From Escherichia phage EJP2: a stretch of DNA of 64,000 bases. Both the position numbers and the translations under genes were made by a program. The notes below the pieces were generated by a model, which had not been told where the DNA came from, did not search any database, and saw only the letters and a list, made by a program, of their open reading frames with translations. The stretch is from sequence record OQ411014.1. One strand, 5' to 3'. Below are positions 19,642-53,757 of this stretch, piece by piece; the first letter of the stretch is position 1, and each line of letters starts with the position of its first letter.

Positions 19642-19677
19642 AAGAAAAAAGGAGACTTTGTAGTCTCCTTTCTTTTT
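19641..19677. terminator. bidirectional rho-independent terminator between convergent genes
   Basis: A-run, hairpin aaaggagact-ttgt-agtctccttt, T-run. Confidence 0.7.
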
Positions 19678-20854: not shown

Positions 20855-20900
20855 AATTAAATCTCCGTCTAATAATTATAATGTATTTACCAAAAAGGAC

Positions 20901-20929
20901 TTGACAGTACTGAACAGTACTAGTAGAAT
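20901..20929 (+). promoter_or_regulatory. sigma70-type promoter
   Basis: TTGACA-N17-TAGAAT with two AGTACT copies in spacer. Confidence 0.55.
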
Positions 20930-33346: not shown

Positions 33347-33382
33347 AAGAAAAATGCCAGTACATATTTTAGTACTGGCATT
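33347..33382. terminator. bidirectional terminator at strand switch
   Basis: A-run, gccagtac-N8-gtactggc, T-run. Confidence 0.65.
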
Positions 33383-33385
33383 TTG

Positions 33386-34516
33386 TTAAAATGGTAAATC
33401 TATTTGTTTGGTAATCGTCATACCTAAAGGTATTGAACACATTGACATATTTTTCCCATTTAGATTGGAAGGCGGCTGTCCGTTCATCCATATATTGGTA
33501 TCGTCATAGAATGTACTCCACCACGTAGAACCACCTTCTATGTGAATATTTTGATTAAAATCAGCGAATTGGCATTCTTGAAAAACTTCAAAAAACGGAA
33601 TAGATGATAAACTACTACTAGTAAATGGTGTATATCCTGTTGCCATTAACTTATTCGTATCTGAATTTACTAAAAAGATAACATTACCTGCATTGTATGG
33701 TACATATTTGGGATATAAATTACTCATATCACCAATAGGGAAGTTAATATTAAATATTTTACTATGCGTACCCGTTCCTGAAAGTGTAGTACCAGTTACG
33801 TATATTTTATTATCAGTTGTACCCATAATAAACCCAATACCAAACCCAGAACAAAATGTAATGTCGTATGAAACATTATCAAATAGTTGAACAAACGTAG
33901 TTACATCACCTGCTGGACTTTGTATTTGTAAACTATTGTTTGCACCTGCTCCCCAAACAGTTCCGTTACTTTTCACTTTGAATAAAGTATCTCCTATATA
34001 GTGACCATATATGCTATCAACTTCAGTATCAAGTTCTGTCCATTGTGACACAAAGTTTTTATGCCCTAAACCTAAACACCCATTACGATTAAGCCCTCTA
34101 CCGTACAATGTACCATCATTCATCAATACAAATACTGTATATCCACATAACATTTTTTTAATTTGTGTAACGTCGATACCATTAAAATACCCACTCCAAT
34201 CTGCATAACCTTGTTGCATTGTCGAAGAATTTGTAAATGCTTGTGTTGGCCCTGAACCATATATTTTACCACCTTTAATAATGACTGAAAACGATCCCAA
34301 CCACACATCTTGAACATCCTGAGCAATTGTTTTCAATTCACCATATGCAGTTAAGGGAGTACTTTGCCCTGAACTATATGTTGAATCTTCTCCGTGTGCA
34401 TATAATGTTCCATCTTGTGTTAGAATCATTTCTAAGTAAACAGCACTTACACTTTTCTTTATTTTATTAACTTCTATTTTATTTCCGTACTTCAACATCC
34501 TTGCAAAAGGTAACAT
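33386..34516 (-). CDS. RCC1-like beta-propeller paralog, N-terminal MLPFARMLKYGN
   Basis: 376 aa; YGRGLNRNGCLGLGHK-type repeats; 9 bp downstream of preceding paralog (likely co-transcribed). Confidence 0.8.
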   Translation of the reverse strand: MLPFARMLKYGNKIEVNKIKKSVSAVYLEMILTQDGTLYAHGEDSTYSSGQSTPLTAYGELKTIAQDVQDVWLGSFSVIIKGGKIYGSGPTQAFTNSSTMQQGYADWSGYFNGIDVTQIKKMLCGYTVFVLMNDGTLYGRGLNRNGCLGLGHKNFVSQWTELDTEVDSIYGHYIGDTLFKVKSNGTVWGAGANNSLQIQSPAGDVTTFVQLFDNVSYDITFCSGFGIGFIMGTTDNKIYVTGTTLSGTGTHSKIFNINFPIGDMSNLYPKYVPYNAGNVIFLVNSDTNKLMATGYTPFTSSSLSSIPFFEVFQECQFADFNQNIHIEGGSTWWSTFYDDTNIWMNGQPPSNLNGKNMSMCSIPLGMTITKQIDLPF

Positions 34517-34525
34517 GATAATCTC

Positions 34526-35704
34526 CTATCGATCAAATTTAAAATCTGTTATGTGTGTCCAAACATGTGGTAATGGTGTACTCAATGGTGTAAATCCAGC
34601 AGGGTCTGACAAAGTACTACCACATGCGTACATAAATTGATTACCAGTACAATCCATTATAGCATAAGAACGTGTAGCTGTACCACATTTGAATCCAACT
34701 GCACTGCTTGGTGTTGGTAATACTTCAAATGTTAGTGCATTTGATGAACCACCACCATCCTTTGTACCTGCGATGTATAGTACTCCATTATTATCAATGA
34801 TTAAGTTGGTCCAATATGCTTGTTCTCTCCCAGCAAGGAAATATGATAAATCACCTGGTACAAATGGTAATGTTCCTTTATACATGGTAGTATTAACATT
34901 CACTGGTGCTCCAGATACACCCCAAGCACTCATGAAGTTTCTTCCACTTGCGTAGAATGTAGTTCCTTTACCGTAAAGTATTAACGTCGCTTGACTTGTA
35001 CGCATTGCATTGTATTCAAACTCAGGATCATCAGTTGCGTTCTTAAAAATCTGTGTCCATGATGTGATATTTCCAGCAGTTGTTACGCCCATTTGATAAT
35101 AATAATTATCACCAGTAGCATAGAATTCTTTTGGTCCAGTTTGCACAACTGCATTACTATTAGTGAGCCAAAAATTCAAAGTTCCAGTTCTTACTATAGT
35201 TGGTGTAAAATTACCGACTGTGTTTCCTTTACCGAAATAACCATTCGCGTTATCCCCATGACCCCACACATCACCATTTGTTGTACGTATGAATAATGTA
35301 CCAGTATTGAAAGCAACTTTTTCTATAGTACTGATATCAATACCAGCCGAAGTGTACTTCGATGTGAAATCTTGAAAAGTACCCCAATAATTAGATGAAC
35401 CATTAAACATTGCTTGTCTACCAGTGTACTTCACTTTATTATCATTAGTTATAAGTAACGTCCCCCACACTGACGCGAACATCAACTTAACATTTTCCAT
35501 AACGAAATATGGTTTACCATATGCCGCAGCGGTAGAGTTCCTCCCTAAAAGTTGACCATTATTACTACAACCCCATACTTCGCCATTATCCAATAGCATT
35601 AACATTGTAGGCTTACCCGATGACACATCCAAGAAGAAATCCACGGGTGTTGCACCTTTCGGTATCACATTTCCATATTCTAACATCCTTACAAAAGGTA
35701 ACAT
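34526..35704 (-). CDS. beta-propeller-like paralog, N-terminal MLPFVRMLEYGN
   Basis: track ORF extends to TTG at 35710; ATG at 35704 follows GGAGA; Gly/Thr/Asn-rich repeat body. Confidence 0.8.
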   Translation of the reverse strand: MLPFVRMLEYGNVIPKGATPVDFFLDVSSGKPTMLMLLDNGEVWGCSNNGQLLGRNSTAAAYGKPYFVMENVKLMFASVWGTLLITNDNKVKYTGRQAMFNGSSNYWGTFQDFTSKYTSAGIDISTIEKVAFNTGTLFIRTTNGDVWGHGDNANGYFGKGNTVGNFTPTIVRTGTLNFWLTNSNAVVQTGPKEFYATGDNYYYQMGVTTAGNITSWTQIFKNATDDPEFEYNAMRTSQATLILYGKGTTFYASGRNFMSAWGVSGAPVNVNTTMYKGTLPFVPGDLSYFLAGREQAYWTNLIIDNNGVLYIAGTKDGGGSSNALTFEVLPTPSSAVGFKCGTATRSYAIMDCTGNQFMYACGSTLSDPAGFTPLSTPLPHVWTHITDFKFDR

Positions 35705-35740
35705 AATCAAATCTCCGTAATTAAATCATACAGTATTTAC

Positions 35741-35771
35741 AAAAAAAATGCCAGTACATATTTCAGTACTA
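35741..35771 (-). terminator. rho-independent terminator within paralog array (example)
   Basis: minus strand: agtactgaaatatgtactggc followed by T8. Confidence 0.6.
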
Positions 35772-35775
35772 TATA

Positions 35776-36942
35776 TTATTGGGGAAAGCGTGGATCGTCA
35801 AGAATAAATTCAGTACTGCTAGTTCCACCATCTGTGATATATGTTCCAGTACTATAGATGTAGTTTCCATCAGTTAGATACGTTCTGAAATTCGTACCAA
35901 TAACCTTAACATTAGGCATATCAGTTACTTCAGATGGTAAAATACATTTTGTATAGAATAGTTTATTTCCACTTGAACCTACACCTAAACAAACATAGTT
36001 GCTGGTATTATAACCACTACCATATACACCATCGGTTGTAACAACAAATGATTTATAATATTCGTATCCCAAATTGACACTTAAACGTTCACCTGCGGGT
36101 TGTTGTCCAGCCGAAATAGTACTATAAGCCTTATAAGTACCAGCCGAATCCTGACCATTACCAAGTGCACCAAATCGAGCAGCACCACCATTATATACGT
36201 TTTTAACTAATGAAGAATTTTGGTTTATACCAATAGCAACAAATTCGTTATTACTATACGCTATATTTGGACTTCCAACAGAAGTTGAATTTAACGTATA
36301 AATGGTTACTCTAGCACTAACATCATTATTATTATACCCAACAATTGTTCCAGTGTAATATAATTTACCGTCTTCTGTATTAAATCCATGCATGGTGCTA
36401 TTTGCGAATATTTTATGTGGGATAATACCATCTGGTATGGTGGCTTTAACAAAAGAACCAGTAATATTCGCTGTAGTATTATTTCCTAATTCACCATAGC
36501 TGCCGTACCCAGTTGACCATATAGTATCATTGGATAATAAAACACTTAGAGAGAATTTTGATGTTACGATATCTTTAATATCTGCCTCTAACAACGCAAA
36601 CAATGAAGAACAATCTGTCCATTGATTAACTGAACCACCAGGAACGCCAATATATGAGTTATTACCACTGAACCAGAACTCCCCATTGAACTTTTGAACT
36701 AATATAGTTTCCGCAGTAACCCATACCTTTTGTACGGAATCCAACGTCGGTGTCCATACAGTAACTTTAGTACCACTGGCATTACCCATACCAAACGCAC
36801 CCGATTGGTCACGCCCACGAACAAATAACTCACCAGATGTCATTAGAACAACCGTGAAATACATAGAGCATTTAATATCTTTTATTGGTGCTGGTGTTGG
36901 GGCTTTATTCCCATAATTTATCATCCTCACAAAAGGTAACAT
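35776..36942 (-). CDS. RCC1-like beta-propeller paralog, N-terminal MLPFVRMINYGN
   Basis: 388 aa; YGSGYNTSNYVCLGVG-type repeats. Confidence 0.8.
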   Translation of the reverse strand: MLPFVRMINYGNKAPTPAPIKDIKCSMYFTVVLMTSGELFVRGRDQSGAFGMGNASGTKVTVWTPTLDSVQKVWVTAETILVQKFNGEFWFSGNNSYIGVPGGSVNQWTDCSSLFALLEADIKDIVTSKFSLSVLLSNDTIWSTGYGSYGELGNNTTANITGSFVKATIPDGIIPHKIFANSTMHGFNTEDGKLYYTGTIVGYNNNDVSARVTIYTLNSTSVGSPNIAYSNNEFVAIGINQNSSLVKNVYNGGAARFGALGNGQDSAGTYKAYSTISAGQQPAGERLSVNLGYEYYKSFVVTTDGVYGSGYNTSNYVCLGVGSSGNKLFYTKCILPSEVTDMPNVKVIGTNFRTYLTDGNYIYSTGTYITDGGTSSTEFILDDPRFPQ

Positions 36943-37019
36943 AATTAATTCTCCAAAATTAAAATAATTATAAGGTATTTAATAAAAAAATACCAGCACC
37001 TTTCAGTACTGGTATTATA

Positions 37020-38402
37020 TTACATACTAGTTAATTGTATTTCTGTTAATGTCGCATAAGTTACGCCTTTGTAAATCCCACGCCAATAAATTTTCCCATC
37101 AGTTCCCATAACTACTAATCCATAGGACAAATGAGCACCAGCATCGTTATAGAGTGTTCCACCAACGTACATAGCATCATATACATCAATGCCAATATCT
37201 TCTGGTGTGAAATTCGCCACCGCCCCAGTAGACCATGTTGGACTTGCAAAATAATCACTATATACACCATGTGCTACTGTTATAACACTTGATCCTCGTT
37301 CATACAACACAGTACCACAAAAACTCATGTGGATACGCGTCGTCTGCGTCGTCGGTATATCAACCAATCCAGCACCTGGGTAAGACCCTGTAGTAATCTT
37401 CTTGTAATCACCACCAGTTGTGTTCAAGCTATTGACAGATGTACTACTCATACCAACGTTGTAGTTCTGGTAGTAATAGAAATTACCACTTATATATACT
37501 GAATACCCACCACCAGTACCATTACGTAATAATTTACCACCGGAAGTGAATAATATACCCTCATTACATGAATCAAAATGATATGTATCAGTTGTTGGAG
37601 CAACAATCTCAGTCCATGCTGTTAGGTTCTGATACGCCCCAGGTGTGTTCGTTAAGCATCTATTACTGTTTGTTCCTTTACCAACCAACGAGCCATCTTC
37701 TAATTGTGCATAAATTGCTTGATAACCATCAGTGTAATAAGTTGAGTTGTGAGCGAAACCAAGAATACCACTTATCTTTTTGACTTTTTGTGTTAATTTG
37801 GTATCTTTAACAAAACCAACAGTCCATTGACCATATGATACAATCTCGTTTATCATACCTAACCCATATGGGCCATTGTACCATATCTCACCCGCATCGT
37901 TAAGTACTACAACTAATCCTTCGTACTTACTTGTAAATGTCCCACTATTCCATGTTACTGGTCCGTTATTATATGCACTTACAACAATCGCATCAACTAT
38001 AGTCCCAACTTTGGTCAAAAATGCACTTACATCAACCCATTGGTAATCAGTCGTGAAAGGTGCACTAGTAGTACTCGCGTTAGTGAACAAACCAGTACTG
38101 TACTGTCCACAGAAGAAATATTTTCCGTTATTATCCAGTACTAAACATCCAATGTTTAATAACCAGAAATCCTTTACATTAGTACGGATAGCTTCTAAAC
38201 CAGAATCAACTGGAGTTTGTACACCAAAGGCAACCTTCTTCGTGTTACCCATTCCATAAAGAGTACCATCATTTCCTAAAATAGCACCCGCCCAGTTCCC
38301 ACCGCCATTTGAGTTTCGTCCTCTACCTACAGTTTGCATCTTTGTACCTTTAGGCACTTCAACTGTATTTCCATAATTTAACATCCTCACAAAAGGTAAC
38401 AT
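37020..38402 (-). CDS. beta-propeller-like paralog, N-terminal MLPFVRMLNYGN
   Basis: track ORF extends to TTG at 38417; ATG at 38402 (460 aa); Gly/Thr/Tyr-rich repeats. Confidence 0.8.
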   Translation of the reverse strand: MLPFVRMLNYGNTVEVPKGTKMQTVGRGRNSNGGGNWAGAILGNDGTLYGMGNTKKVAFGVQTPVDSGLEAIRTNVKDFWLLNIGCLVLDNNGKYFFCGQYSTGLFTNASTTSAPFTTDYQWVDVSAFLTKVGTIVDAIVVSAYNNGPVTWNSGTFTSKYEGLVVVLNDAGEIWYNGPYGLGMINEIVSYGQWTVGFVKDTKLTQKVKKISGILGFAHNSTYYTDGYQAIYAQLEDGSLVGKGTNSNRCLTNTPGAYQNLTAWTEIVAPTTDTYHFDSCNEGILFTSGGKLLRNGTGGGYSVYISGNFYYYQNYNVGMSSTSVNSLNTTGGDYKKITTGSYPGAGLVDIPTTQTTRIHMSFCGTVLYERGSSVITVAHGVYSDYFASPTWSTGAVANFTPEDIGIDVYDAMYVGGTLYNDAGAHLSYGLVVMGTDGKIYWRGIYKGVTYATLTEIQLTSM

Positions 38403-38443
38403 AACTAAATTCTCCAAAATTAAAATAATTATAATGTATTTAC
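38403..38443 (-). promoter_or_regulatory. conserved upstream leader/promoter module of paralog array (example)
   Basis: minus strand gtaaatacattataattattttaattttggagaatttagtt-ATG; near-identical upstream of at least 10 paralogs. Confidence 0.5.
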
Positions 38444-38474
38444 AAAAAAATACCAGTACGTATTTCAGTACTGG
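38444..38474 (-). terminator. rho-independent terminator within array
   Basis: minus strand: ccagtac-tgaaatac-gtactgg followed by T7. Confidence 0.65.
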
Positions 38475-38482
38475 CTTTTTAA

Positions 38483-39652
38483 TTAAGAAGGTAATAGAAA
38501 ATTAGCAAATCCACCCATCCCCAATGTGGGTACTAATCCAGCTACAGTTGGTGCTCTATTTGATGGTGAGCTAACAGCAATTCGACCATCTTTATATACC
38601 AATGAATTAGAACTGCCTGTGCATAAGTATCCACCTGAATATGGTACTGTACTTTGTTTACATTTGGTGAAAATTCCAATGGAAGACGATGCATTTATTA
38701 AATTTACACCATCATATCCACAACTATATATCCACCCATCTTCCCCTATGTATAAAGAAGAACTTGCATTTGCCGAACTAACGAACTTTCTGAATATTCG
38801 CTGATCCATAGGAGCAACTGACAATGTACCGGAATAGAATTTATTATTAATACCACTAGTAACACCGTCACCAAATACACCATAAGAACCTGAACCAGTT
38901 GCATAGTATCGTTTATCTCCCAAGAAAATCATACAGTTGTTATTGCATATTTTATATTGATATATTAAAGTAGTATCAATTCCTGGGAAAGATTCAGTAA
39001 ATGATAGAACATTAGCAATTGTACTTGCGTTGCATTGATGACTTGCATTTTGTCCTGATGATAAAATTGTTCCATCTTGTAGTAATATTCGAGATGTACC
39101 AGTACCACTAAAAACTCTTAATGCTGGTTTTGTATTATATATTTGTTTAAATGAAAAGAAACCAACAGACATTATTCCCTGACCACTCCATCCAGTATTG
39201 TCAGTTCCAATAGCCCATACTGAATCGTCTTCAGCGATAACCATAACACCATAGCGGTCAATGCTAATATCTTTAATTTTGGACATATCAATTGCATTGA
39301 ACCTTGAACTAATATCCTTCCATGTTGTTGTGCTTGCAGTAGGACTTACAGTTATATCATTCCCTGCTATATAAACACTCCCACTTATTGTAACATAAAT
39401 CGTTTGGGAATACCCAGTACTGCATAATAATACATTTTCTGAACTTGGAACCTTAATCCATTCGTTGTAAACTCCAGTTTGGGGCGTAATACCTAACTGA
39501 TAAAAATCATTTGACCCAGTAAGATATAGTTTTCCATCCTTAACAAAACTGAAATTAGAACTGTAATCACTGGATGTAAGTCTTGGTTCAATTGGTACTG
39601 GTGGTACTGGTGCATTATTCCCATATTCTAACATCCTCACAAAAGGTAACAT
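38483..39652 (-). CDS. RCC1-like beta-propeller paralog, N-terminal MLPFVRMLEYGN
   Basis: track ORF to 39667 (TTG); ATG at 39652; resembles 43486-44658. Confidence 0.8.
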   Translation of the reverse strand: MLPFVRMLEYGNNAPVPPVPIEPRLTSSDYSSNFSFVKDGKLYLTGSNDFYQLGITPQTGVYNEWIKVPSSENVLLCSTGYSQTIYVTISGSVYIAGNDITVSPTASTTTWKDISSRFNAIDMSKIKDISIDRYGVMVIAEDDSVWAIGTDNTGWSGQGIMSVGFFSFKQIYNTKPALRVFSGTGTSRILLQDGTILSSGQNASHQCNASTIANVLSFTESFPGIDTTLIYQYKICNNNCMIFLGDKRYYATGSGSYGVFGDGVTSGINNKFYSGTLSVAPMDQRIFRKFVSSANASSSLYIGEDGWIYSCGYDGVNLINASSSIGIFTKCKQSTVPYSGGYLCTGSSNSLVYKDGRIAVSSPSNRAPTVAGLVPTLGMGGFANFLLPS

Positions 39653-39739
39653 AACTAAATTCTCCAAAATTAAAATAATTATAATGTATTTACAAAAAAA
39701 TACCAGTACGTATTTCAGTACTGGTATTGTGGTATTGTA

Positions 39740-40846
39740 TCATTTCGGCATTGTAATTGCAGACCATGAATTTGAAGTAATTGGACCTGGTACGAACACT
39801 GTTGAACCACATGCATAAATTTGTCTATCCCCATCATACACAACACTAAAGCTAGTACAAGTAAACAATGACGAATTTAATGGATTGTAAGTATCTAATG
39901 TTAGTGTATTCTCCCACTGACTTGAACCTAGACCACCTGACCTACCAAATGCACCAGTACTGTATATCTTACCTTCAGTTGTTGCATATATATTAACATA
40001 TGAAGTTGAACTGGATTTAGATATTTTATGTATCTTATTATCAATTGCACTAGGGTTAAATGTAAATGGATATATTTGTACGTTAGTTCTTGAACCATTA
40101 CCAAGTTGACCATCATACTGCCAGCCAGCAACGTATGTACTACTACCTGAATATGCTATAGTACTAGTACTGTTACCGCCCAGTATTTTAACACTAGTTA
40201 AACGACTTACTAAAGTAATGTACTGCCCTTGACTCACACCCAGTGAACCATAACTACTAGTCCCACATCCAATAAGGTCACCGTTGGATGTTAAGATTAA
40301 TGTGTTGTTTTGCGTACCATATATATCAGCAACTTCATTTGTACCAGTATTCAGTACTAACACAAAAGCACTCTGTGAACTTGGATATCCACCACCGAGT
40401 GAATAGTTACCGTTCATGCCTCTTCCATAAACCTTTGTACCACTAGCATCTACGTAGTGCATCGTATCTGAACCAATTGATATCATTTTAATATTAGATA
40501 TGTGTGGGAATGAAGAAGTAACATCTAAACCACCCAAGGGGATTGCAGTATTACCCGTACCTAACTGAGAAGTAACTCCGTGTATTCTGAACTCTTCTCC
40601 TTTGAGATACAGAAGACTGTACCCACCAGCCCATGCATCAGAAACACCCTCTGCAACTAATATCCAAGTATTTTTTGCTGCTGTACCAAAGACATTCAAC
40701 TGCAAATATGAATTATCTCCACATCCATATAATGTCCCATCACTATATAGTACGTACAAATTATTGGTTCCACAAAATACTTTCTTGATCGTTATACCTT
40801 CTGGGGCTATATTTCCATAGGTCATTATTCTTGCAAAAGGTAACAT
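39740..40846 (-). CDS. RCC1-like beta-propeller paralog, N-terminal MLPFARIMTYGN
   Basis: 368 aa; LYGCGDNSYLQLNVFG and related repeats. Confidence 0.8.
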   Translation of the reverse strand: MLPFARIMTYGNIAPEGITIKKVFCGTNNLYVLYSDGTLYGCGDNSYLQLNVFGTAAKNTWILVAEGVSDAWAGGYSLLYLKGEEFRIHGVTSQLGTGNTAIPLGGLDVTSSFPHISNIKMISIGSDTMHYVDASGTKVYGRGMNGNYSLGGGYPSSQSAFVLVLNTGTNEVADIYGTQNNTLILTSNGDLIGCGTSSYGSLGVSQGQYITLVSRLTSVKILGGNSTSTIAYSGSSTYVAGWQYDGQLGNGSRTNVQIYPFTFNPSAIDNKIHKISKSSSTSYVNIYATTEGKIYSTGAFGRSGGLGSSQWENTLTLDTYNPLNSSLFTCTSFSVVYDGDRQIYACGSTVFVPGPITSNSWSAITMPK

Positions 40847-40937
40847 AATTAAATCTCCATATAATAATTATAATGTATTTACAAAAAAAGCCAGTACGTA
40901 TTTCAGTACTGGTATTGTGGTATTGTGGTATTGTGAT

Positions 40938-42128
40938 TTAAGGCTTCGGCACTGGCGGTGTTACCAGTTGATATGTGTTCTGAATTGTATTGTTCGAGAA
41001 TGAACGTCCAGTGTAGTATACGTCACCAGCTTTCGTCAAATAAGCAACGCCGAAATCAGCACCAACATATGTTTCCATGCTGCTAATATTAGGTGGATTC
41101 ACTGGCGGCGTAAATCTAGCCTTGTTACTATTAGTACCATTACCAAACCGACCATAAGTACCATTACCTGTAGTATATAATGTACCATTAGTACTAATAA
41201 CGCAACCAATGTCTGAACCATCACCATTGGTGTTAAGTGTTACTGGAGAAGTTATTACAGTACTGCTATCAGTAAGGAATAGTAAGTTATTATTAATACT
41301 TACAGCATTACTTAAACTACCTGTTCCTAAGTTTCCATTAATACTGTTACCACTTACAATTAAGTACCAAGCGTCAGTTGTTGTATTGTTTATCAATATG
41401 AATGAACCATCTGTGTTCATTGCAACATCATGTGGAATTAGGTTAGTAGCTAAATTGTACTTAGTCCATGAATATATGTTATTCGTTGTTGCCGTAATAC
41501 CCAAGATCCCAGAACTATTCTGACCAGTTCTCCAGAGTGAATTATCATTCTTGATAATCCACGTGGTATTAATGCGATGTGTTAATTTTTTTACATCAGT
41601 ATTCAATTTAGTAAAAGTACTAACCATAGTGTTACTACCAAGTCCTAATGTCCCTCCTAGGTTTCTACCCATACCATATAGATCACCATTTTCTAAGTGC
41701 ACTAAAATATGACTCCACGAAACCTGAATATCAATTATACTGTCTATTTGTGTAGGTGTAAAAACACTCGTAAACAAAGTCGTTATATCAGTCCACGTGG
41801 TACTAAACCCAGTACCAGCAACAATATCATTTGCTCCGGTGTAATAAAATTTATTATCAATAGTCTGAATCAATGCGAACTCAACAAGTGAACATGCAAA
41901 TCTTTTAACATCATGATGTACTAAAACCCAATTCGGATAATTTGTACCACCTGAATCACCTTGTCCGAAGCAGTAGTTCCTTGAAGTTCCACCACCAATC
42001 CCATATAGTGTGTTGTCCTTGTACAATATAAACAAACAACCACTATTACCCGATGGCATATAAATTGTTTCTATTGGTGAAGTAGGTAACTTATTCCCGT
42101 ACTCCAAAATTCTTGCAAAAGGTAACAT
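40938..42128 (-). CDS. beta-propeller-like paralog, N-terminal MLPFARILEYGN
   Basis: track ORF to 42188; conserved ATG at 42128 (396 aa). Confidence 0.75.
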   Translation of the reverse strand: MLPFARILEYGNKLPTSPIETIYMPSGNSGCLFILYKDNTLYGIGGGTSRNYCFGQGDSGGTNYPNWVLVHHDVKRFACSLVEFALIQTIDNKFYYTGANDIVAGTGFSTTWTDITTLFTSVFTPTQIDSIIDIQVSWSHILVHLENGDLYGMGRNLGGTLGLGSNTMVSTFTKLNTDVKKLTHRINTTWIIKNDNSLWRTGQNSSGILGITATTNNIYSWTKYNLATNLIPHDVAMNTDGSFILINNTTTDAWYLIVSGNSINGNLGTGSLSNAVSINNNLLFLTDSSTVITSPVTLNTNGDGSDIGCVISTNGTLYTTGNGTYGRFGNGTNSNKARFTPPVNPPNISSMETYVGADFGVAYLTKAGDVYYTGRSFSNNTIQNTYQLVTPPVPKP

Positions 42129-42215
42129 AACTAAATTCTCCAAAATTAAAATAATTATATTGTATTTACAAAAAAAATACCAGCACATATTTCAGTACTG
42201 GTATTGTTTCTTATT

Positions 42216-43406
42216 TTATTGCCATAACTGTGTTGGCATTAGGGTTAGTGTAGTAACAACAGACGCACCATTAGGTAAGTTACCACCAGAACCATTAAAA
42301 CCACCACACGCATATAATTTATAATCTTTAGTAACAATTAATGTCCTGGACCAGTCTTTAGATGCCATAAGAACATTGTCATATCCACCAGGTATAGCAG
42401 TTAATTTAAACAACGCCCACGAATTAACTAGAGTTGTATTTCCTGTTCCTTGTTGACCATATGAATTGACACCACCACTCCTAACATATGATGGGTATTG
42501 AGCCATAGGTGTACCAATTGATGCGTTACCCATAGAACTAGGACATAAGAAAGCATCACTAATATTCACTGTAACTTGTGAATTTTTAACTGGAGTGAGT
42601 TGGTTTGTAGATGAAGTAGTACCATTCCCAGCTTGTCCAGTATTGTTGTAACCACTCCAATACACACTACCAGCAGTGAACCACCAAGTAACATCATAGG
42701 TAGCACTTATATAATCGACGTTCGTTCGTATTAATTTATTAGTATAAACGAATGAGCTAGTCCCACCCCCACTTTCACCAAAGTTATCCTTACCACAAAA
42801 CCATGCTTCTTTATTTGTTTTGAGATAGTGTGTACCCTGTAATGAACATGCGAGTTGAGAAACTTCACCCATATTAGTCATAACTGTTAGTACTGGAATA
42901 GCATTTTTATTCCCTGAACCACATTCAGCATTTGTATTGTTACCACAAGCAATGACTCTTCCATCGTGTAGTAATATTCTAGTACTTTCACCTATATGTA
43001 CACTCTTGATTAAATTAGCGTGCACATTAATTTTGTCAAAGGAAGCAGTAACATCAGTCCATGTTAAGAAATATCCATTAACAGGAGTTGCGGCTCCATA
43101 ATCAGGAAATGCACCTATCGACCCAGTGTAGTATATTCTATTATCCAGATCAATCATCAATGATCCATGAACACCTACCCAAAACGCCGCACAGTGCATT
43201 GCGAGTACAGTAAAAGTAGAAACTGTTGATCTATTCCCTAGACCTAATTGGCCCAAGTTATTACTACCATATCCGTATAATGTATTCGTGGGCTTATGTA
43301 GATACATAGCATTGGTGTATTGTTGCTGTAAAACATCAGTAAACTCTACTGGATCAGGAGGGGCAATCGTATTCCCATAAGTCATTATTCTTGCAAAAGG
43401 TAACAT
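42216..43406 (-). CDS. RCC1-like beta-propeller paralog, N-terminal MLPFARIMTYGN
   Basis: track ORF to 43421; ATG at 43406; clear repeats LYGYGSNNLGQLGLGN, WYSGYNNTGQAGNG, VNSYGQQGTGN. Confidence 0.85.
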   Translation of the reverse strand: MLPFARIMTYGNTIAPPDPVEFTDVLQQQYTNAMYLHKPTNTLYGYGSNNLGQLGLGNRSTVSTFTVLAMHCAAFWVGVHGSLMIDLDNRIYYTGSIGAFPDYGAATPVNGYFLTWTDVTASFDKINVHANLIKSVHIGESTRILLHDGRVIACGNNTNAECGSGNKNAIPVLTVMTNMGEVSQLACSLQGTHYLKTNKEAWFCGKDNFGESGGGTSSFVYTNKLIRTNVDYISATYDVTWWFTAGSVYWSGYNNTGQAGNGTTSSTNQLTPVKNSQVTVNISDAFLCPSSMGNASIGTPMAQYPSYVRSGGVNSYGQQGTGNTTLVNSWALFKLTAIPGGYDNVLMASKDWSRTLIVTKDYKLYACGGFNGSGGNLPNGASVVTTLTLMPTQLWQ

Positions 43407-43447
43407 AACTAAATTCTCCAAAATTAAAATAATTATAATGTATTTAC

Positions 43448-43481
43448 AAAAAAATACCAGTACGTATTTCAGTACTGGTAT
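43448..43481 (-). terminator. rho-independent terminator within array
   Basis: minus strand: taccagtac-N8-gtactggta followed by T7. Confidence 0.65.
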
Positions 43482-43485
43482 AATG

Positions 43486-44658
43486 TTATGGTAAAATAAT
43501 AGCTTGTAACGAACTCATACCCAATTCTGGAACACTCGCCTGTGGTGCTGGTGCATTCACTTTTGGTGATGAAACCGCATAAGTCATTCCTGTACCCAAA
43601 TCTGGATCAAAAACTACAGAACAATAATCCCCATTGTATATAAGTCCATTAGTATATCCTTGTGCACTTTGAATGCATTTCGTGAACGTACCAATGTCAG
43701 TAGTGGCATTTATTAAGTTCCTCCCACGGTAGCCACAGGTGTATATGAAATTATCAACACCTATGTACATACTCGCATTCCCAGAAGAACTACATAGATA
43801 AGACATATAAGCACGCATGTTTTTAGGAGCAACTGACAATGTACCAGCATAGAATTTATTATTCGAACCCGAAATATCACCATCACCCAAAGCACCAAAA
43901 CTCCCCCAACCAGTACCATAATATCTCTTATCACTCAAGAATATAATACAGTTGTTATTACACATCTTGATTTGATATATCAATGAAGGATCAACCCCAG
44001 GGAATGATTCAGTGTATGTTAGAACAGCCAGATCAGTACTAGCATTACATTGATGATATGTATTAGTACCAGCGGACAATATTGTACCATTAGCTAATAG
44101 AATCCTCGAAGTGCCAGTACCAGCAGTACAAGCAACAGCATTACCTGTATATATTTGTCTGAAAGTAAAGAAACCAACAGTTTTACTCCCCTGTCCACTC
44201 CAACCAGTATTATCAACACCACATGCCCATACTGAACCATCTTGCATGATCATCATTACACCATAGCGTTCTATCGAAATATAGACAATCTTCGTAGTAT
44301 CAACTGCACTAAATCTAGAAGTTATATCAGTCCAAACCTTTACACTCACCGCCGTCGCACCGAAAGTAGGATCTTCCCCTGCTATCATTATCCTACCATT
44401 GTTAGTCAGATACATTGTCTGACCATAACCAGTACTACAAAACTTAACACTATCAGTCTCTGGAACTTTTAACCACTCGTTGTAACGTGTTACGTTAGTG
44501 TTATTACCTAACTGATAATAGTTATTCATCCCAGATACATATAACACACCATCCTTTATTAAACTATAAGTCGCACTATAGTCACTACAGGTATAACGTG
44601 TACCCACAGGCCGCTCAACGACGTTCCCATATTCTAACATCCTTACAAAAGGTAACAT
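43486..44658 (-). CDS. RCC1-like beta-propeller paralog, N-terminal MLPFVRMLEYGN
   Basis: track ORF to 44664; ATG at 44658; LYVSGMNNYYQLGNNT repeat. Confidence 0.8.
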   Translation of the reverse strand: MLPFVRMLEYGNVVERPVGTRYTCSDYSATYSLIKDGVLYVSGMNNYYQLGNNTNVTRYNEWLKVPETDSVKFCSTGYGQTMYLTNNGRIMIAGEDPTFGATAVSVKVWTDITSRFSAVDTTKIVYISIERYGVMMIMQDGSVWACGVDNTGWSGQGSKTVGFFTFRQIYTGNAVACTAGTGTSRILLANGTILSAGTNTYHQCNASTDLAVLTYTESFPGVDPSLIYQIKMCNNNCIIFLSDKRYYGTGWGSFGALGDGDISGSNNKFYAGTLSVAPKNMRAYMSYLCSSSGNASMYIGVDNFIYTCGYRGRNLINATTDIGTFTKCIQSAQGYTNGLIYNGDYCSVVFDPDLGTGMTYAVSSPKVNAPAPQASVPELGMSSLQAIILP

Positions 44659-44732
44659 AATCAAATCTCCGTAATTAAATCATACAGTATTTACAAAAAA
44701 ATACCAGTACATATTCCAGTACTGGCCTATTA

Positions 44733-45854
44733 TTAAAAGGGCAACGGTAACTCAGTAAAAGTACTTACGTTCGGTAAACCATACATTAAATTAGCATCAC
44801 CACAGTAATACCACTTCGTAGAATCATGTACCACCGATAAACGCTGTGCACATAACACTTCCTGTATGTCATTAAACACCATCGGGACTAACTCATATGT
44901 ATCCGCATATGAAGATTCACCACCACTCGCATGAAAAGTATTCATCCCAGCATAAAATAACTGATTAGTGTTCTTACCCACAGCAAATGTCATCAATATC
45001 CCATCATTCTCCCATAAAGAAGAAAACTTATCAACACTACCAGAAAGCTCTGTGTAAGTACTCGTAATGGCACTCGCAGCCGCCGCATTACCCATCTGTT
45101 TATTCAAGTTCTGTCCAGCAATAAAATATCTCGTGCGTGCACTAGAATCAGTATATAATAACCCAGTGTTCGTAGTCATCATTCCAATGTCCTTAATCGT
45201 CATACCAGTCTGTGAATAACTTAGATACGAAGTTAAACTACCATTATTACCCAACGAACCGTTATCACTCATGCCACAACGATGTAATATACCACTTGTA
45301 TCAACGTAGATAGTACTAACTAAACTCGTATACAACTCTTGTACATTATTCGCAATAAACACAGCAGTCGCCTTATTAGTAACCCCACCAAATGATAGGT
45401 TATTATCAAATCCCTTAGCGTATAATTGATTATTAGTAGTAACTAACCCAATCGCGTAATAAGATATTTTCATATCCCTTACAGTACTCAAATCTACTAC
45501 CCCAAATTGATGCGTAACATCTGTCCATGTGAAAATCTGTGCACTACCAACACCACCCGTTTCAAACCATTTGTCACCACAGTACAATATGCGATTATCC
45601 TTAGTAAAGATAACTGTTACCAATCCACTACCACACGCAAACTTTACATCACTTCTAACCTTCGTCCAATCAAGTACATAGGTAGTGGTGTTATTACCTA
45701 TACCTAACTTACCATAACGGTTATAACCACGCACCCACAAATCACCACTCTCAGTAATTAATAGTAATGCGTCTCCTGTACTTATTATTCGAAATCCCGA
45801 ACTAGGATCGGGTGCTATATTCCCATAAGTCATCATTCTTGCAAAAGGCAACAT
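44733..45854 (-). CDS. beta-propeller-like paralog, N-terminal MLPFARMMTYGN
   Basis: 373 aa; WVRGYNRYGKLGIGNN repeat. Confidence 0.8.
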   Translation of the reverse strand: MLPFARMMTYGNIAPDPSSGFRIISTGDALLLITESGDLWVRGYNRYGKLGIGNNTTTYVLDWTKVRSDVKFACGSGLVTVIFTKDNRILYCGDKWFETGGVGSAQIFTWTDVTHQFGVVDLSTVRDMKISYYAIGLVTTNNQLYAKGFDNNLSFGGVTNKATAVFIANNVQELYTSLVSTIYVDTSGILHRCGMSDNGSLGNNGSLTSYLSYSQTGMTIKDIGMMTTNTGLLYTDSSARTRYFIAGQNLNKQMGNAAAASAITSTYTELSGSVDKFSSLWENDGILMTFAVGKNTNQLFYAGMNTFHASGGESSYADTYELVPMVFNDIQEVLCAQRLSVVHDSTKWYYCGDANLMYGLPNVSTFTELPLPF

Positions 45855-45935
45855 AATAAAATCTCCGTAATTAAATCATACAGTATTTACAAAATACCAG
45901 CACATATTTCAGTACTGGTATAGTGGTATATTAAA

Positions 45936-47084
45936 TCACTGCACAAATGACATATCAACTTCTGTGTAACTAGGCACGCTCTGTGTAGAAAGACCACCCA
46001 TTGCTACCATCGCAATTCCACAATAATATAACTTCCCTTTGTCATCGAGTAACAATGTCCCAGATGGTGTTGTTACTAAATTACACGAAGTATTAAAAGA
46101 AGTATATGAAGGAGTATAGTAGTACTGATTAATGGTATTACCTACACCTAATTTTCCATACCCATTGCCGCCAGATGCGTAAAGTACTTCATCTGCTTTG
46201 ACAATATGTGATGCCATGTTACTAACACACGTATATACAGCACTAACTCCTGTACTCAATAATGTAGGAGTCTTGTATTGGAGATCAGTACTGGAAGATG
46301 TTCCACCTGTACCAAATTCATTACCGTATTGTGCACCGTATTGTTTACCACATCCGTACAAATTACCATCACTCTTAATAAAAAACGTACTCTGGTAACT
46401 TACATTAAAATCAATAACATCTGATGCAATCTGCTTTACTCCAGTGATAGAAACCTGATCCCCTGTACCTAACTGATAGTAATAGTTAAATCCACATCCC
46501 CATAAGGTATTGTCTGTACGCAAATAAATGTTACCAACAGCCTTTTTAACAGACGTTATAGTACTGACCTTCTTGAATGTATTAAATGAACTAATGTTTG
46601 TACCATCTCCAAAGGATGTTATATTAGATATGTTATTAGCACCACAACAATATAATGTACCGTCATTTGTTACCAAATTCACCTTCATATTATTAAAACT
46701 ACTCATGTACGCAATATCCGAAACAGTAATACCACTGGATGTTATCCACGTAGTACAATCCGTCCATAACGTCTTTCTATCAGTTACACCAGTGAATGCA
46801 TTTGTGTTTCCAGTCATAAACACTTTCCCTGTGCCCTCTTCTTCATACAACTGACAATCACTGCTGTTATCTTCCAATAGAACTCTTTTAACGTTCTCTG
46901 CACATAGAATAAATTTACTCGCAGCTACTCCAGTTCCCGTACCATAAATGCTTCCAGATGATGCATACAACTTTTTAGTGAAAGTATCATGTAAGTATAC
47001 AGACATACTAGAATATATTTTAAAACGATCATCGTTAGTAGGAGCAACATTACTGTACTCCAATATCCTCGCAAAAGGTAACAT
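45936..47084 (-). CDS. beta-propeller-like paralog, N-terminal MLPFARILEYSN
   Basis: track ORF to 47099; ATG at 47084; Gly/Thr/Asn-rich repeats. Confidence 0.75.
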   Translation of the reverse strand: MLPFARILEYSNVAPTNDDRFKIYSSMSVYLHDTFTKKLYASSGSIYGTGTGVAASKFILCAENVKRVLLEDNSSDCQLYEEEGTGKVFMTGNTNAFTGVTDRKTLWTDCTTWITSSGITVSDIAYMSSFNNMKVNLVTNDGTLYCCGANNISNITSFGDGTNISSFNTFKKVSTITSVKKAVGNIYLRTDNTLWGCGFNYYYQLGTGDQVSITGVKQIASDVIDFNVSYQSTFFIKSDGNLYGCGKQYGAQYGNEFGTGGTSSSTDLQYKTPTLLSTGVSAVYTCVSNMASHIVKADEVLYASGGNGYGKLGVGNTINQYYYTPSYTSFNTSCNLVTTPSGTLLLDDKGKLYYCGIAMVAMGGLSTQSVPSYTEVDMSFVQ

Positions 47085-47123
47085 AACTAAATTCTCCATA
47101 CAATAATTATAATGTATTTAACC

Positions 47124-47153
47124 AAAAAAAGCCAGCACCTTTCAGTACTGGTA
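47124..47153 (-). terminator. rho-independent terminator within array
   Basis: minus strand: accagtactgaaaggtgctggc followed by T7. Confidence 0.6.
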
Positions 47154-47162
47154 TCTATAATC

Positions 47163-48059
47163 CTATGTAAAAACATACTGCGTGTTAACACGTGTACCAT
47201 TGTCAAAACCAAGCACATAAAATATCTCAGGACTATTATTAGAACCAAATAACGCTCCAGTACTACTACTCAAAGTACTATTAACCGCTAACGCAATCCA
47301 TTCGTTTTGTTCTTGGTCGTATCTCAATAAATTTAATGCACCAAATGATACTGCATATATTTGTTTATCATATGTATTGTAAATTATTTTACTAGGGTTA
47401 GAACCACCAACACCAGCAATGTTAGACCACACAGCACTCTGTATATGATATTTTTGTGCAGTACTCACACCTTGGCCTGTAATATATATGTAAGTACCAT
47501 CTGTACACATATCACCACCACCATTGTTATTTGTACCATCACTCGTACCTAATGATGCCCAGGTATTAGTACTAGGAGTATAACTGTATAACGAATTATT
47601 AGTAGGAGATCCCCACAAATATATCTTATCACCAGCAGTAATCATCTTACTATACGCCAGTTGATTAGGCTTCCCAATACTGTTAGTGTTCAGAATCCAG
47701 GTATTTGTACTTATATTATATACATAAAAATTATTAGCACCATTACCAGTACCACCAAACAAATATATTTTCCCCTCATAAAAACATAACGCACTACCAA
47801 ATGTAGATACAGGTGCATTGGCTAATTGTAACCACGTTCTAGTACTTAAATTAAAACTCCATAACTGATTATCCCCCATCACCGCATTCTGTATACCACC
47901 AAATATATAAGCAGTATTACTTTTCGCATCATACGTATAACCAAAGTTATTTTTAGCAGGAGGTACAGGTGATGTCGTAAATGCAGAACGTATTCCCCTA
48001 TTGGTAGCAAACACCTCTGCAACATTCCCGTACTCCAACATCCTTACAAAAGGTAACAT
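47163..48059 (-). CDS. Kelch-like beta-propeller paralog, N-terminal MLPFVRMLEYGN (short member)
   Basis: 298 aa; Kelch-type spacing: AYIFGG...WSFNLSTRTW...KIYLFGG...YVYNISTNTW. Confidence 0.75.
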   Translation of the reverse strand: MLPFVRMLEYGNVAEVFATNRGIRSAFTTSPVPPAKNNFGYTYDAKSNTAYIFGGIQNAVMGDNQLWSFNLSTRTWLQLANAPVSTFGSALCFYEGKIYLFGGTGNGANNFYVYNISTNTWILNTNSIGKPNQLAYSKMITAGDKIYLWGSPTNNSLYSYTPSTNTWASLGTSDGTNNNGGGDMCTDGTYIYITGQGVSTAQKYHIQSAVWSNIAGVGGSNPSKIIYNTYDKQIYAVSFGALNLLRYDQEQNEWIALAVNSTLSSSTGALFGSNNSPEIFYVLGFDNGTRVNTQYVFT

Positions 48060-48136
48060 AACTAATTCTCCAAAATTAAAATAATTATAATGTATTTACA
48101 AAAATACCAGCACCTTTCAGTACTGGTATAGTAGTA

Positions 48137-49246
48137 TTATATCGGTAAATCTATCTTAGTGAAAATACCAACATCTTCACTCGCTCCAGGTATTGCATAA
48201 TATGTCCCAGTACTGTACACTTCACCATCTTTTGTTAATATAGATGTTAAACCATCACTATAAAGAACATCCCTGATATCACTAACTCCAACTGGTAACT
48301 GCAAATTCGTTGCACTATAAACCGCTCCAGTCTGAGAATTGTTTAATCCTAAACCACGGTTTGAACCTACACCCTTCTGATATGTACTAGTAATTATAAT
48401 TTGTGTAGCAGTATTTAATGCAGGTGAATTCGTCATAAACAACGGAGAACTATTAGGCAAAGAACTTGCAGGAACTGCACGAAATGTAGTTGCATCTGAA
48501 CTAAGAAAGTTTGGCGTTTGACCACATACGAAATATGATGTACCATTATAGTAATTAAATGCATTACCACCTATAGCTGCATCTATTACTCCAGTACTAC
48601 GTAATCCCCACGTGTTAATTTGTGTTCGGTTCCCCGTACCATGCTGACCCCTGTCATTCCACCCAGAACTATATAACTTATTATCTAATGTAATATACAT
48701 ACTGTCATTTGCATTCGTCATTACTTTACGCACATTAGTAGCACATTGAGTTAATGTGTAAATTGATGATGAACCAATACCTAAAGCACCACGATATCCA
48801 TTAGCCCCTGCACCATAGAGTACTGAACTAGTGCTAAGTACAAATATTAAACCATACGAACATACTATATCAGCAATTTCATTTACCGATAGTACACTAG
48901 TAAACCACGCAGTCCTATCAACTAATACAGTACTGTAAGAAGTCCCAGTAGAAGACGAAAACCAATAAGTCTCACCAGTAGTCCATATAGTATTGTCACT
49001 CTTAATAACAACAACTGTACGATCACCAGCAAAAAAATTAGTAACTCCTGTACTCACTAATGTCCATGAAGATACAGTGTTCGTATTGTTATTACCCGAT
49101 TCCCCACCCTGATTCCTACCTATGTAATATAATTCATTCGTGTCAGTCAACACATACTGCCCCTGCGTCGATGCCCCAACCTTAATTATATTTTTAGGAC
49201 CGGGTGCAACATTCCCGTACTCCAACATCCTTACAAAAGGTAACAT
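48137..49246 (-). CDS. RCC1-like beta-propeller paralog, N-terminal MLPFVRMLEYGN
   Basis: 369 aa; LYSSGWNDRGQHGTGN, LYGAGANGYRGALGIG; 10 bp downstream of 49257-50387. Confidence 0.8.
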   Translation of the reverse strand: MLPFVRMLEYGNVAPGPKNIIKVGASTQGQYVLTDTNELYYIGRNQGGESGNNNTNTVSSWTLVSTGVTNFFAGDRTVVVIKSDNTIWTTGETYWFSSSTGTSYSTVLVDRTAWFTSVLSVNEIADIVCSYGLIFVLSTSSVLYGAGANGYRGALGIGSSSIYTLTQCATNVRKVMTNANDSMYITLDNKLYSSGWNDRGQHGTGNRTQINTWGLRSTGVIDAAIGGNAFNYYNGTSYFVCGQTPNFLSSDATTFRAVPASSLPNSSPLFMTNSPALNTATQIIITSTYQKGVGSNRGLGLNNSQTGAVYSATNLQLPVGVSDIRDVLYSDGLTSILTKDGEVYSTGTYYAIPGASEDVGIFTKIDLPI

Positions 49247-49256
49247 ATTTCTCTCC

Positions 49257-50387: not shown

Positions 50388-50501
50388 AATAATCATCCCT
50401 ATACAATAAAATTATATAGTATTTACCAAAACAACTATTGACAACACAATAGCAGTACTGTATAGTATAGCAATAAAATTCCCACATAAAGGCCCAACAA
50501 C

Positions 50502-51292: not shown

Positions 51293-51300
51293 AGAAAACA

Positions 51301-53360: not shown

Positions 53361-53381
53361 ACTTTAAAAGAGATTAAAACG

Positions 53382-53744: not shown

Positions 53745-53757
53745 GTTAAAAATTAGT

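Follow-up and report, generated by a model that had tools for sequence, protein, structure and literature searches.

What does a stretch of similar DNA do in front of gene after gene of a family whose coding bodies have diverged? This question is raised by Escherichia phage EJP2 (sequence record OQ411014.1), of which 64,000 nucleotides, hereafter the window, were analyzed, with the module at 38403–38482, upstream of the gene that starts at 38402, as the focal copy. By a translation scan of the window, 15 minus-strand paralogs were found that start with ATGTT(A/G)CCTTTTG and encode MLPF[VA]R[MI]xxY[GS]N (ATGs at 20854, 34516, 35704, 36942, 38402, 39652, 40846, 42128, 43406, 44658, 45854, 47084, 48059, 49246, and 50387), and 13 of them carry an upstream hairpin plus T-run, [GT]TAAATAY-N2-TATAAT and GGAG. 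The results presented here indicate that this repeated unit is probably a gene-cassette boundary, which combines a terminator, a T4-like late promoter, a 5′ leader and a 12-codon tag, and which would also be a substrate for recombination.

Anatomy and copies of the repeated unit

On the minus strand around 38300–38600, the focal sequence reads ...gCCAGTACtgaaatacGTACTGGtatttttttGTAAATACatTATAATtattttaattttGGAGaatttagttATG TTA CCT TTT GTG AGG ATG TTA, and comprises the following parts.

38452..38475, minus strand: terminator hairpin, CCAGTAC (38474–38468), loop TGAAATAC, GTACTGG (38459–38453), with the T-run at 38450–38444 (sequence, terminator scan; fold −12.4 kcal/mol, z −4.5)
38428..38443, minus strand: putative promoter core GTAAATAC-AT-TATAAT, with TAAATA at 38442–38437 and TATAAT at 38433–38428 (sequence, hexamer counts)
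38403..38427, minus strand: short A/U-rich 5′ leader with the Shine–Dalgarno sequence (SD) GGAG at 38415–38412, 9 nt from the ATG (sequence)
38367..38402, minus strand: codons 1–12 of the focal gene, common N-terminal leader MLPFVRMLNYGN (translation, alignment, AlphaFold2 [AF2] model)

All 11 occurrences of GTAAATAC in the window are on the minus strand, each of them before a paralog. A 40-nt core at 38379–38418 has an exact copy at 39629–39668 (0 matches in 100 shuffles), and the modules of genes 38402 and 39652 are identical over 96 nt, with bodies unrelated in sequence. Among the 13 copies, mean pairwise identity was 0.69 over positions −80 to −1 (0.75 among the 11 internal copies) and 0.82 over codons 1–12; it was 0.22 in the 70 nt upstream of the unit and 0.32–0.33 in codons 13–100. 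GGAG lies 7–9 nt from the ATG in all modules, and in the 11 internal ones the hairpin and T-run stop 1–2 nt short of [GT]TAAATA. Thus the 13 module positions and the two module-less gene pairs listed in the original prediction were all present in the sequence, and its description of the unit as terminator, promoter, short leader and ATG was supported by sequence, terminator scan and folding. The remaining copies, the junctions and the genes they serve are as follows.

33386..50387, minus strand: tandem array of 14 leader-bearing beta-propeller genes (Pfam, alignment, AF2, Foldseek)
50352..50460, minus strand: module and leader codons of the first array gene (ATG 50387), with promoter GTAAATACtatATAAT and a weak SD, without a canonical upstream terminator (sequence)
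49211..49256, minus strand: module-less junction, stop of gene 50387 overlapping the SD (TAAGGAG), then leader codons of gene 49246 (sequence)
48024..48129, minus strand: module and leader codons of the Kelch-type paralog (ATG 48059; sequence, Pfam, terminator scan)
47049..47151, minus strand: module and leader codons (ATG 47084; sequence, terminator scan)
45819..45920, minus strand: module and leader codons (ATG 45854), variant TAAATACTGTATGAT (sequence)
44623..44726, minus strand: module and leader codons (ATG 44658), TGTATGAT variant; a short patch at codons 5–9 differs in the Turkey3 ortholog (sequence, terminator scan, comparison)
43371..43481, minus strand: module and leader codons (ATG 43406); in Turkey3 its 5′ half joins another gene (sequence, terminator scan, comparison)
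42093..42205, minus strand: module and leader codons (ATG 42128; sequence, terminator scan)
40811..40912, minus strand: module and leader codons (ATG 40846; sequence, terminator scan)
39617..39728, minus strand: module and leader codons (ATG 39652), hairpin through codon 8 exactly as in the focal module (sequence, exact-repeat search, terminator scan)
36907..37016, minus strand: module and leader codons (ATG 36942; sequence, terminator scan)
35669..35771, minus strand: module and leader codons (ATG 35704), with a weaker hairpin and the TGTATGAT variant (sequence)
34481..34525, minus strand: module-less junction, stop of gene 35704 overlapping the SD (TAGGAG), then leader codons of gene 34516 (sequence)
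33351..33384, minus strand: array-closing terminator hairpin, 13-bp stem, −19.2 kcal/mol (terminator scan, RNA fold)
20819..20915, minus strand: module and leader codons of the solitary paralog (ATG 20854), with promoter and SD and no paralog upstream (sequence)
19676..20854, minus strand: solitary RCC1-like 15th paralog, with promoter, SD and leader as in the array (sequence, Pfam)

The hairpins folded with −12 to −19 kcal/mol (z −4.5 to −7.4), no shuffled sequence folding as well, and these G+C-containing hairpins are directly followed by U-runs, as in intrinsic terminators. A terminator scan of the window returned 22 terminator-like sites against 7.3 expected, of which about 10 are the minus-strand module hairpins, plus the array-closing terminator. 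In phage GAP32, the module has the same layout, with a hairpin stem of unrelated sequence followed by a T-run, which argues for selection on structure. The focal 5′ leader plus first codons folded worse than shuffles (z +1.5; 189 of 200 shuffles folded at least as well), so an RNA structure in this segment was rejected, and an Rfam search of the whole window at the gathering threshold gave no RNA family match in the module.

The architecture was further surveyed at 58 leader-bearing paralog starts in seven phages. TAAATA was found upstream of the ATG in 44, at a distance of 25–34 nt in 43, with a hairpin and T-run preceding it in most. Most of the 14 starts without TAAATA, including both cases in the window, are coupled through stop and SD to the gene above. 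In the window, genes 34516 and 49246 begin 9–10 nt past the upstream stop, which overlaps the SD, and look translationally coupled to the gene above, in line with the bicistronic pairs of the original prediction; the 50387/49246 junction is also kept in Turkey3.

A short tandem repeat (cacaatac)n, "cacaataccacaataccacaataccagtactg", lies between stop and hairpin of two modules on the minus strand (40913–40945 and 39729–39745); slippage or recombination may have left it as a scar where the unit begins on its 5′ side.

Promoter class

The late promoter of phage T4 is TATAAATA, read by gp55, gp33 and gp45. No module passed a sigma-70 −35/−10 scan and no −35 occurs at 16–18 nt, confirming that a canonical −35 at 17 bp is missing, and a canonical sigma-70 promoter was rejected. 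Of all 64 hexamers made of A and T only, TAAATA is the least frequent in the window (22 copies, counting both strands, vs. about 120 expected); 13 of these 22 copies sit in modules and one more precedes the open reading frame (ORF) 14936. With 125 copies, TATAAT belongs to the commonest hexamers of the window and is therefore of low specificity. Ten of the 13 window modules have it in perfect form; across other copies and phages its position degenerates (TATGAT, TATAAC, TATAAA, TATATT, GATATT), while TAAATA is present in every module.

In a motif scan covering 145 kb of the 348-kb PBECO4 genome, TAAATA was found at most 100 nt upstream of 17 of 22 structural genes (P = 3e-23), with flanking variants that include GTAAATA and TTAAATA, and the gene of gp368, a virion protein outside the paralog family, shows the same composite TAAATACGTTATAAT. 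The bases before the core are TG or AT in the modules vs. TA in TATAAATA; the core is invariant, and the PBECO4 structural genes vary likewise. In the Rak2-like phages CBB and GAP32, structural genes were predicted to follow a late promoter, ATAAATA with an A/T-rich downstream region, and a gp55-like sigma was predicted as well (PMC5259590). Because TAAATA is rare and concentrated in the modules and before PBECO4 structural genes, the module promoter is best read as a T4-like late promoter of Rak2-like/Asteriusvirus phages, with TAAATA as the putative core and TATA(AT) as the putative initiation region; late timing, the sigma used and the exact transcription start are what we infer.

The original prediction had taken TATAAT as a −10 element, possibly recognized by a phage sigma factor at 4574–5566. 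The product of this plus-strand ORF belongs to the sigma-70 family, with Pfam matches to regions 2 and 3 but none to region 4, and the ORF lies among small genes without Pfam match. It is 36% identical and orthologous to PBECO4 gp356, an "RNA polymerase sigma factor", not to gp530, annotated there as "sigma factor for late transcription". The ORF is unlikely to encode the late sigma, and no homolog of the PBECO4-type late sigma was found within the 64-kb window. On hexamer counts, PBECO4 genes and the gp356 orthology, the earlier reading is less likely than a TAAATA late promoter.

The product of the plus-strand ORF 14936–16456 (region 14840–16456) shares 62% identity with gp323, a virion structural protein of PBECO4. 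Upstream of the ORF lie the hairpin ggttgacttaggtcagccc with its T-run and then a canonical TATAAATA, the only late promoter of T4 consensus in the window; the layout in PBECO4 is the same.

A common N-terminal leader on propellers of two families

Twelve genes of the array belong to the RCC1-like family by Pfam models or by alignment, one (47163–48059, 298 residues) is a Kelch-repeat propeller by Pfam, and for one (37020–38402, 460 residues) the Pfam search gave no match. RCC1/RCC1_2 scored above cut-off in several paralogs, and WD40_RLD gave partial matches. When 36 sequences from the window, PBECO4 and Turkey3 were aligned, no columns other than M1, L2, P3, F4, Y10, N12, and two glycines were invariant, and the leader is the most conserved part of the family. 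Its wider consensus M-[LI]-P-F-x-R-x-x-x-Y-G-N is followed by a Pro-rich linker (YGNxxPxP) and then by the beta-propeller body.

The AF2 model of gene 43406 had a mean predicted local distance difference test (pLDDT) value of 83, with a confident propeller and with residues 1–3 and 10–21 below 50, and its top Foldseek matches were UVR8, the HERC2 RLD and RCC1 (template modelling score 0.75). A profile comparison showed little in common between the Kelch paralog and the RCC1 profile past the leader. Since AF2 leaves the leader outside the fold, and both RCC1- and Kelch-type bodies carry it, the first 12 residues are, as modelled, a separate tag outside the fold, on propellers of two families. 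An N-terminal "velcro" strand that closes the propeller was rejected, given the pLDDT values below 50 at residues 1–3 and 10–21 and the peptide on the Kelch propeller.

Codons 2–4 are TTA in 39/40, CCT in 38/40 and TTT in 39/40 genes of the window, PBECO4 and Turkey3 (vs. body codon usage, P 1e-5 to 1e-16), and codons 5, 6, 8, 10, and 11 vary synonymously. Phages Munch, Hallingskeid and GAP32 keep the peptide (MIPFARIMLYGN, MIPFARMIQYGN and MLPFSRIIQYGN, respectively) with codons shifted to ATA, CCA/CCG and TTC; as the peptide is kept while the codons change, long-term selection acts on the peptide, and a DNA or RNA element at codons 2–4 was rejected. The conservation at the nucleotide level that had been claimed for the first 12 codons therefore holds for the synonymous sites of codons 2–4; from codon 5 onward it is mostly conservation of amino acids, and the invariance of codons 2–4 is lost in Munch, Hallingskeid and GAP32. 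The extra nucleotide identity inside the Asteriusvirus group reflects recent shared ancestry or homogenisation. An IMG/VR scan for ATGTTACCTTTTGNNAGRATG found only 121Q and one chance match, a 58-codon ORF without YGN.

The virion proteome of phAPEC6 includes gp003, gp005, gp006, gp007, gp009, gp010, gp549, and gp551 (PMC7247149). All eight of these array proteins detected by virion mass spectrometry (MS) begin MLPF.RM.KYGN, and their computed masses agree with the published table. GAP32 gp1, a virion protein (PMC5259590), likewise has the leader and the same upstream layout. Leader-bearing homologs thus occur in virions. The leader most likely directs dissimilar proteins into or onto the virion, and a binding partner for it is presumed. 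The common N-terminal targeting signal suggested in the original prediction is plausible in the light of the AF2 model, the Kelch and RCC1 bodies and the eight phAPEC6 virion proteins.

Escherichia phage A5-4 (Vequintavirinae, 145 kb) carries three tandem coupled RCC1-like genes at 1462, 2675, and 3818 with another common leader (MLEMLNLGA, MLEMLNLSG, MLEMMNLGS), and the match to a window protein begins at residue 16. This suggests that leaders on the same kind of propeller array may be lineage-specific.

Recombination footprints at the unit

The array is 78–93% identical to Asteriusvirus-type jumbo coliphages (Turkey3, fEgEco12, BF17, CMSTMSU, PBECO4, 121Q, and phAPEC6), and its flanks are more distant from all genomes compared: 1–20000 barely matches, and 50500–64000 is about 83% identical over 40–46% of its length. 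Gene order and content differ among the window, Turkey3 and PBECO4, with single cassettes 99–100% identical to Turkey3 (for gene 50387, 478/480 and 495/500). Bodies share 15–30% protein identity between paralogs of a genome vs. 75–99% between orthologs.

Two module types were distinguished. The window type reads CCAGTAC-N8-GTACTGG ... GTAAATACATTATAAT with 25 nt to the ATG, and the PBECO4 type GCCAGTAC-N2/3-GTACTGGC ... TTAAATATAGTATAAT with 16 nt to the ATG. The type is uniform within PBECO4 and most of the window, and Turkey3 holds both. At Turkey3 junction 13195, before the 50387 ortholog, the module of window gene 43406 runs up to TATAATTATT and is then joined to gene 50387; this hybrid junction implies a crossover between promoter and ATG.

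Further footprints were found within the leader codons. In eight independent ortholog pairs, codons 5–12 were 27% divergent vs. 11% for the bodies (Fisher p = 1.5e-9), the opposite of what purifying selection predicts for the best-conserved segment. Between gene 44658 and Turkey3 14452, the upstream 140 nt were 93–97% and codons 13–40 99% identical, and codons 5–9 read GTAAGGATGTTAGAATAT vs. GTTAGATTGTTTGATTAT, five clustered changes that turn VRMLE into the Turkey3-typical VRLFD. Leader variants go by genome (VRMFD six times and ARMVK five times in Turkey3, VRMLE five times in the window), and leader nucleotides cluster by genome (0.709 vs. 0.667, permutation p = 0.0016), the opposite of the bodies.

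No recombinase, integrase or invertase was found by Pfam among window ORFs of at least 150 residues, which leaves general homologous recombination as the simplest agent. Taken together, the sequence comparisons indicate recombination or gene conversion by way of the unit. The concerted evolution or cassette recombination proposed earlier gained comparative support from the shuffled order, the hybrid junction and the divergence of codons 5–12, but within a genome the homogenisation is only partial, as Turkey3 carries two module types.

Comparison with known systems

The unit resembles PeSL and PmSL (promoter-early and promoter-middle stem-loops) of T4-like phages, composite promoter-terminator cassettes between whose neighbouring copies recombination excises mini-circles (Arbiol et al. 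2010, PMC2839356; Comeau et al. 2014, PMC4122927). Common to both are a terminator stem-loop directly above its own promoter, with SD and start codon at the 3′ end; many near-identical copies between small consecutive transcription units of a plastic region; and copies at insertions, deletions, replacements and displacements between close relatives, as was found for the 13 EJP2 copies. PeSL and PmSL promoters, however, are sigma-70-like early or MotA middle ones and the genes they flank are unrelated early ORFans, whereas the EJP2 promoter is probably of the late TAAATA type, the flanked genes are predicted virion-protein paralogs of one fold family, and the repeat runs 36 nt into the coding region. 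No description of such an element in Rak2-like or Asteriusvirus jumbo phages was found in the literature searched.

Internal-protein (IP) loci of T-even phages with a capsid targeting sequence (CTS) were reportedly described by Repoila et al. in 1994. Shuffling at the IP locus was noted 30 years ago, according to passages in later papers (PMC3012670, PMC4122927, PMC12373910). As those passages have it, adjacent late genes have only a leader of about 10 N-terminal residues in common, their products are in the virion, and the gene set varies strongly between close relatives. A short leader on dissimilar proteins was likewise found in EJP2, and virion presence for its homologs only. The IP genes encode small unrelated proteins, whereas the EJP2 bodies are seven-bladed propellers of about 40 kDa and one fold. 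The leader and the positions after it hold no conserved acidic residue among the paralogs, and a T4-like prohead protease site in the leader was rejected.

The late promoters of T4 and Rak2-like phages and the putative EJP2 promoter have in common a TAAATA core, no −35, an A/T-rich downstream region, a place before virion-protein genes and avoidance of the hexamer elsewhere in the genome, and relatives encode a gp55-like sigma. This pattern of TAAATA before virion genes and its avoidance elsewhere is seen in the 17 of 22 PBECO4 genes and the 14 of 22 window copies. EJP2 differs in having G or T instead of A before TAAATA and a near-perfect TATAAT 3 nt later.

The RCC1-like "DNA condensation" family of 121Q, PBECO4 and phAPEC6, a multi-copy array with several members in virions, is the same gene family as the EJP2 array, and the DNA condensation or inner-body function proposed for it rests on the RCC1 name only (PMC7247149, PMC5259590). 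The shared leader, the Kelch member, the repeated unit and its recombination role are not mentioned in these two papers, and nothing on promoters or leader was found in the phAPEC6, fEgEco12 and Sharanji papers. The RCC1-like array and its virion presence were thus already known, and the literature searched makes no mention of the leader, of a Kelch paralog, of the repeated unit or of footprints of recombination.

Proposed model and alternative explanations

In the model that we favour, an intrinsic terminator of hairpin and U-run would end the upstream gene; TAAATA(Y), with a TATA(AT) initiation region 3 nt later and no −35, would be served by host RNA polymerase and a phage gp55-like late sigma encoded outside the window; and a short unstructured 5′ leader with GGAG would lead into 12 codons for the common N-terminal peptide. 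With a terminator and a promoter of its own, each cassette would be a late monocistronic transcription unit, a minority being stop/SD-coupled instead. Because it is repeated 13 times in direct orientation, the unit of about 110 nt would be open to general homologous recombination as well as to short-patch gene conversion, through which cassettes may be shuffled, deleted, duplicated and exchanged within and between related phages, and the leader partly homogenised per genome.

Several points weigh against this model. Late timing, start sites and terminator efficiency are predicted from sequence alone, and by the same measure the perfect TATAAT of most copies fits a sigma-70-type −10 equally well. 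A gp55-like sigma is not encoded within the window. The within-genome excess of leader similarity is modest (0.709 vs. 0.667), and with 14 paralogs against one ortholog a closer paralog is possible by chance. The virion MS data come from phAPEC6 and GAP32, not EJP2, and show presence alone, not leader-driven incorporation or the site in the virion. By inspection, MLPFxRMxxYGN is presumably unlike the T4 CTS, and no conserved (L/I)-x-E protease site was found in it, leader position 9 being E, N, T, K or D.

The promoter could instead be a "−10 only" or extended −10 promoter of the sigma-70 family, with TATAAT as the −10 and TAAATAC as its upstream extension, read in middle expression by host sigma-70 or the product of ORF 4574–5566. 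The modules, without a canonical −35 and with a perfect TATAAT in 10 of 13, would suit it, as would a sigma with regions 2 and 3 and no region-4 match. Yet TATAAT with its 125 window copies is unspecific, and it is TAAATA that is rarest, concentrated in the modules, retained where the TATAAT position degenerates, and also found before PBECO4 structural genes. Moreover, the PBECO4-type TATAAT ends 16 nt before the ATG, and a start 7 nt on would hit the SD; and the sigma ORF lies among early-type genes as the ortholog of gp356 rather than gp530. We consider this promoter class unlikely. Somewhat less probable still is that the unit is a remnant of tandem duplication under purifying selection, without a role in recombination, and that the discordance reflects relaxed or diversifying selection on codons 5–9. 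Functional elements (TAAATA, GGAG, ATG and the invariant residues) do explain much of the identity, synonymous variation sets in from codon 5, and the leader amino acids are kept across genera with other codons. But non-functional spacers are identical too, as in the 96-nt identity of 38402 and 39652 with their unrelated bodies; the module type differs between genomes and is uniform within PBECO4 and most of the window; the hybrid junction and shuffled order put breakpoints in the unit; and the patch of five changes lies between 93–99% identical flanks.

Two further alternatives appear very improbable. Hairpin and core might form the site of a dedicated site-specific recombinase, attC-like as in integrons or shufflon-like: an imperfect inverted repeat beside a conserved core does bound the cassettes, the stem is built from the CAGTACTG palindrome, which is about 150-fold over-represented genome-wide and possibly a protein-binding site, and the PeSL authors left site-specific recombination open (PMC4122927). 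Such systems have a dedicated recombinase nearby, however, and no integrase, recombinase or invertase domain was found in the large window ORFs. Moreover, all cassettes stand in direct orientation with a promoter each, breakpoints vary between the inside of the module and codons 5–12, GAP32 keeps the architecture with an unrelated hairpin sequence, and AGTACT is spread evenly through coding DNA rather than confined to junctions. Equally hard to credit is that 5′ leader and first codons act as RNA, as a translational operator, riboswitch-like element or nuclease target, and not as the source of a protein tag. The synonymous-site invariance of codons 2–4 in Asteriusvirus-type genomes (P 1e-5 to 1e-16) and the fixed GGAG–ATG distance would fit, but the segment folds worse than shuffles (z +1.5; 189/200), matches no Rfam family, changes its codons and keeps the peptide in Munch, Hallingskeid and GAP32, and lacks its upstream part at the module-less coupled genes, which retain the peptide.

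The cassette-boundary model would explain how a large virion-protein family arises and is renewed in a jumbo phage: the cassette would bring terminator, late promoter and tag, and at any junction would have the right expression time and the same destination. It would also widen the PeSL idea, which concerns T4-like phages and their early ORFans, to the late virion genes that Rak2-like jumbo phages carry, and it argues against a "DNA condensation" reading based on the name alone. The 12-residue tag might load foreign proteins into large virions, like the T4 CTS. More tentatively, MLPFxRMxxYGN might be a lineage-specific virion-incorporation tag equivalent to the T4 CTS, and the array a quickly shuffled arsenal of protein-binding propellers. 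If so, fusion to the dodecapeptide would bring any protein into or onto the jumbo-phage particle; the propellers would either be delivered along with the DNA to act in counter-defence or be on display for host binding; recombination at the late-promoter/leader unit would capture new members, the Kelch propeller being an example; and the MLEM[LM]NL leader on the three Vequintavirinae RCC1-like genes would be the same solution in another lineage.

Further observations on annotation and sequence composition

Public annotations of the array disagree with the conserved SD and ATG: phAPEC6 gp002 and PBECO4 gp288, gp292 and gp294 start upstream, through the promoter unit, and four leader-bearing ORFs of phAPEC6 are unannotated (sites at 3, 2434, 3506–4810, 6063, and 7325 in phAPEC6, and 20185, 25132, and 26439 in PBECO4). 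In the EJP2 window, automatic ORF calls stretch several paralogs up to a TTG or ATG, with spurious N-termini such as MENLVMLPF... and MIMLPF.... For annotation, the ATG of MLPF should be taken as the true start, several GenBank records beginning upstream of it or omitting paralogs.

The plus-strand region 51000–64000 consists of dense small genes with the highest AGTACT density (27–30 per 4 kb), shares about 83% identity with the genome ends of JP4, BF17 and fEgEco12, and looks like an early-gene region. Several palindromic hexamers with 7.6–21 copies expected are absent from the window (AAGCTT, CAGCTG, CCATGG, AGCGCT), as are CCGCGG and CCCGGG, which looks like restriction-site avoidance.

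A literature search on CAGTACTG returned primer sequences only. This sequence has 104 copies in the window vs. 0.7 expected, and the palindrome AGTACT (extended form ttCAGTACTGaa), of which the module hairpin stems consist, has 294 vs. 21 expected (13.7-fold; the next palindromic hexamer is 2.5-fold). AGTACT is spread evenly over the window (e.g., 733, 12570–12587, 18364–18384, 38466, and 55056), lies within genes in all frames with about fourfold enrichment in intergenic DNA, and is the top k-mer also in PBECO4 and Turkey3.

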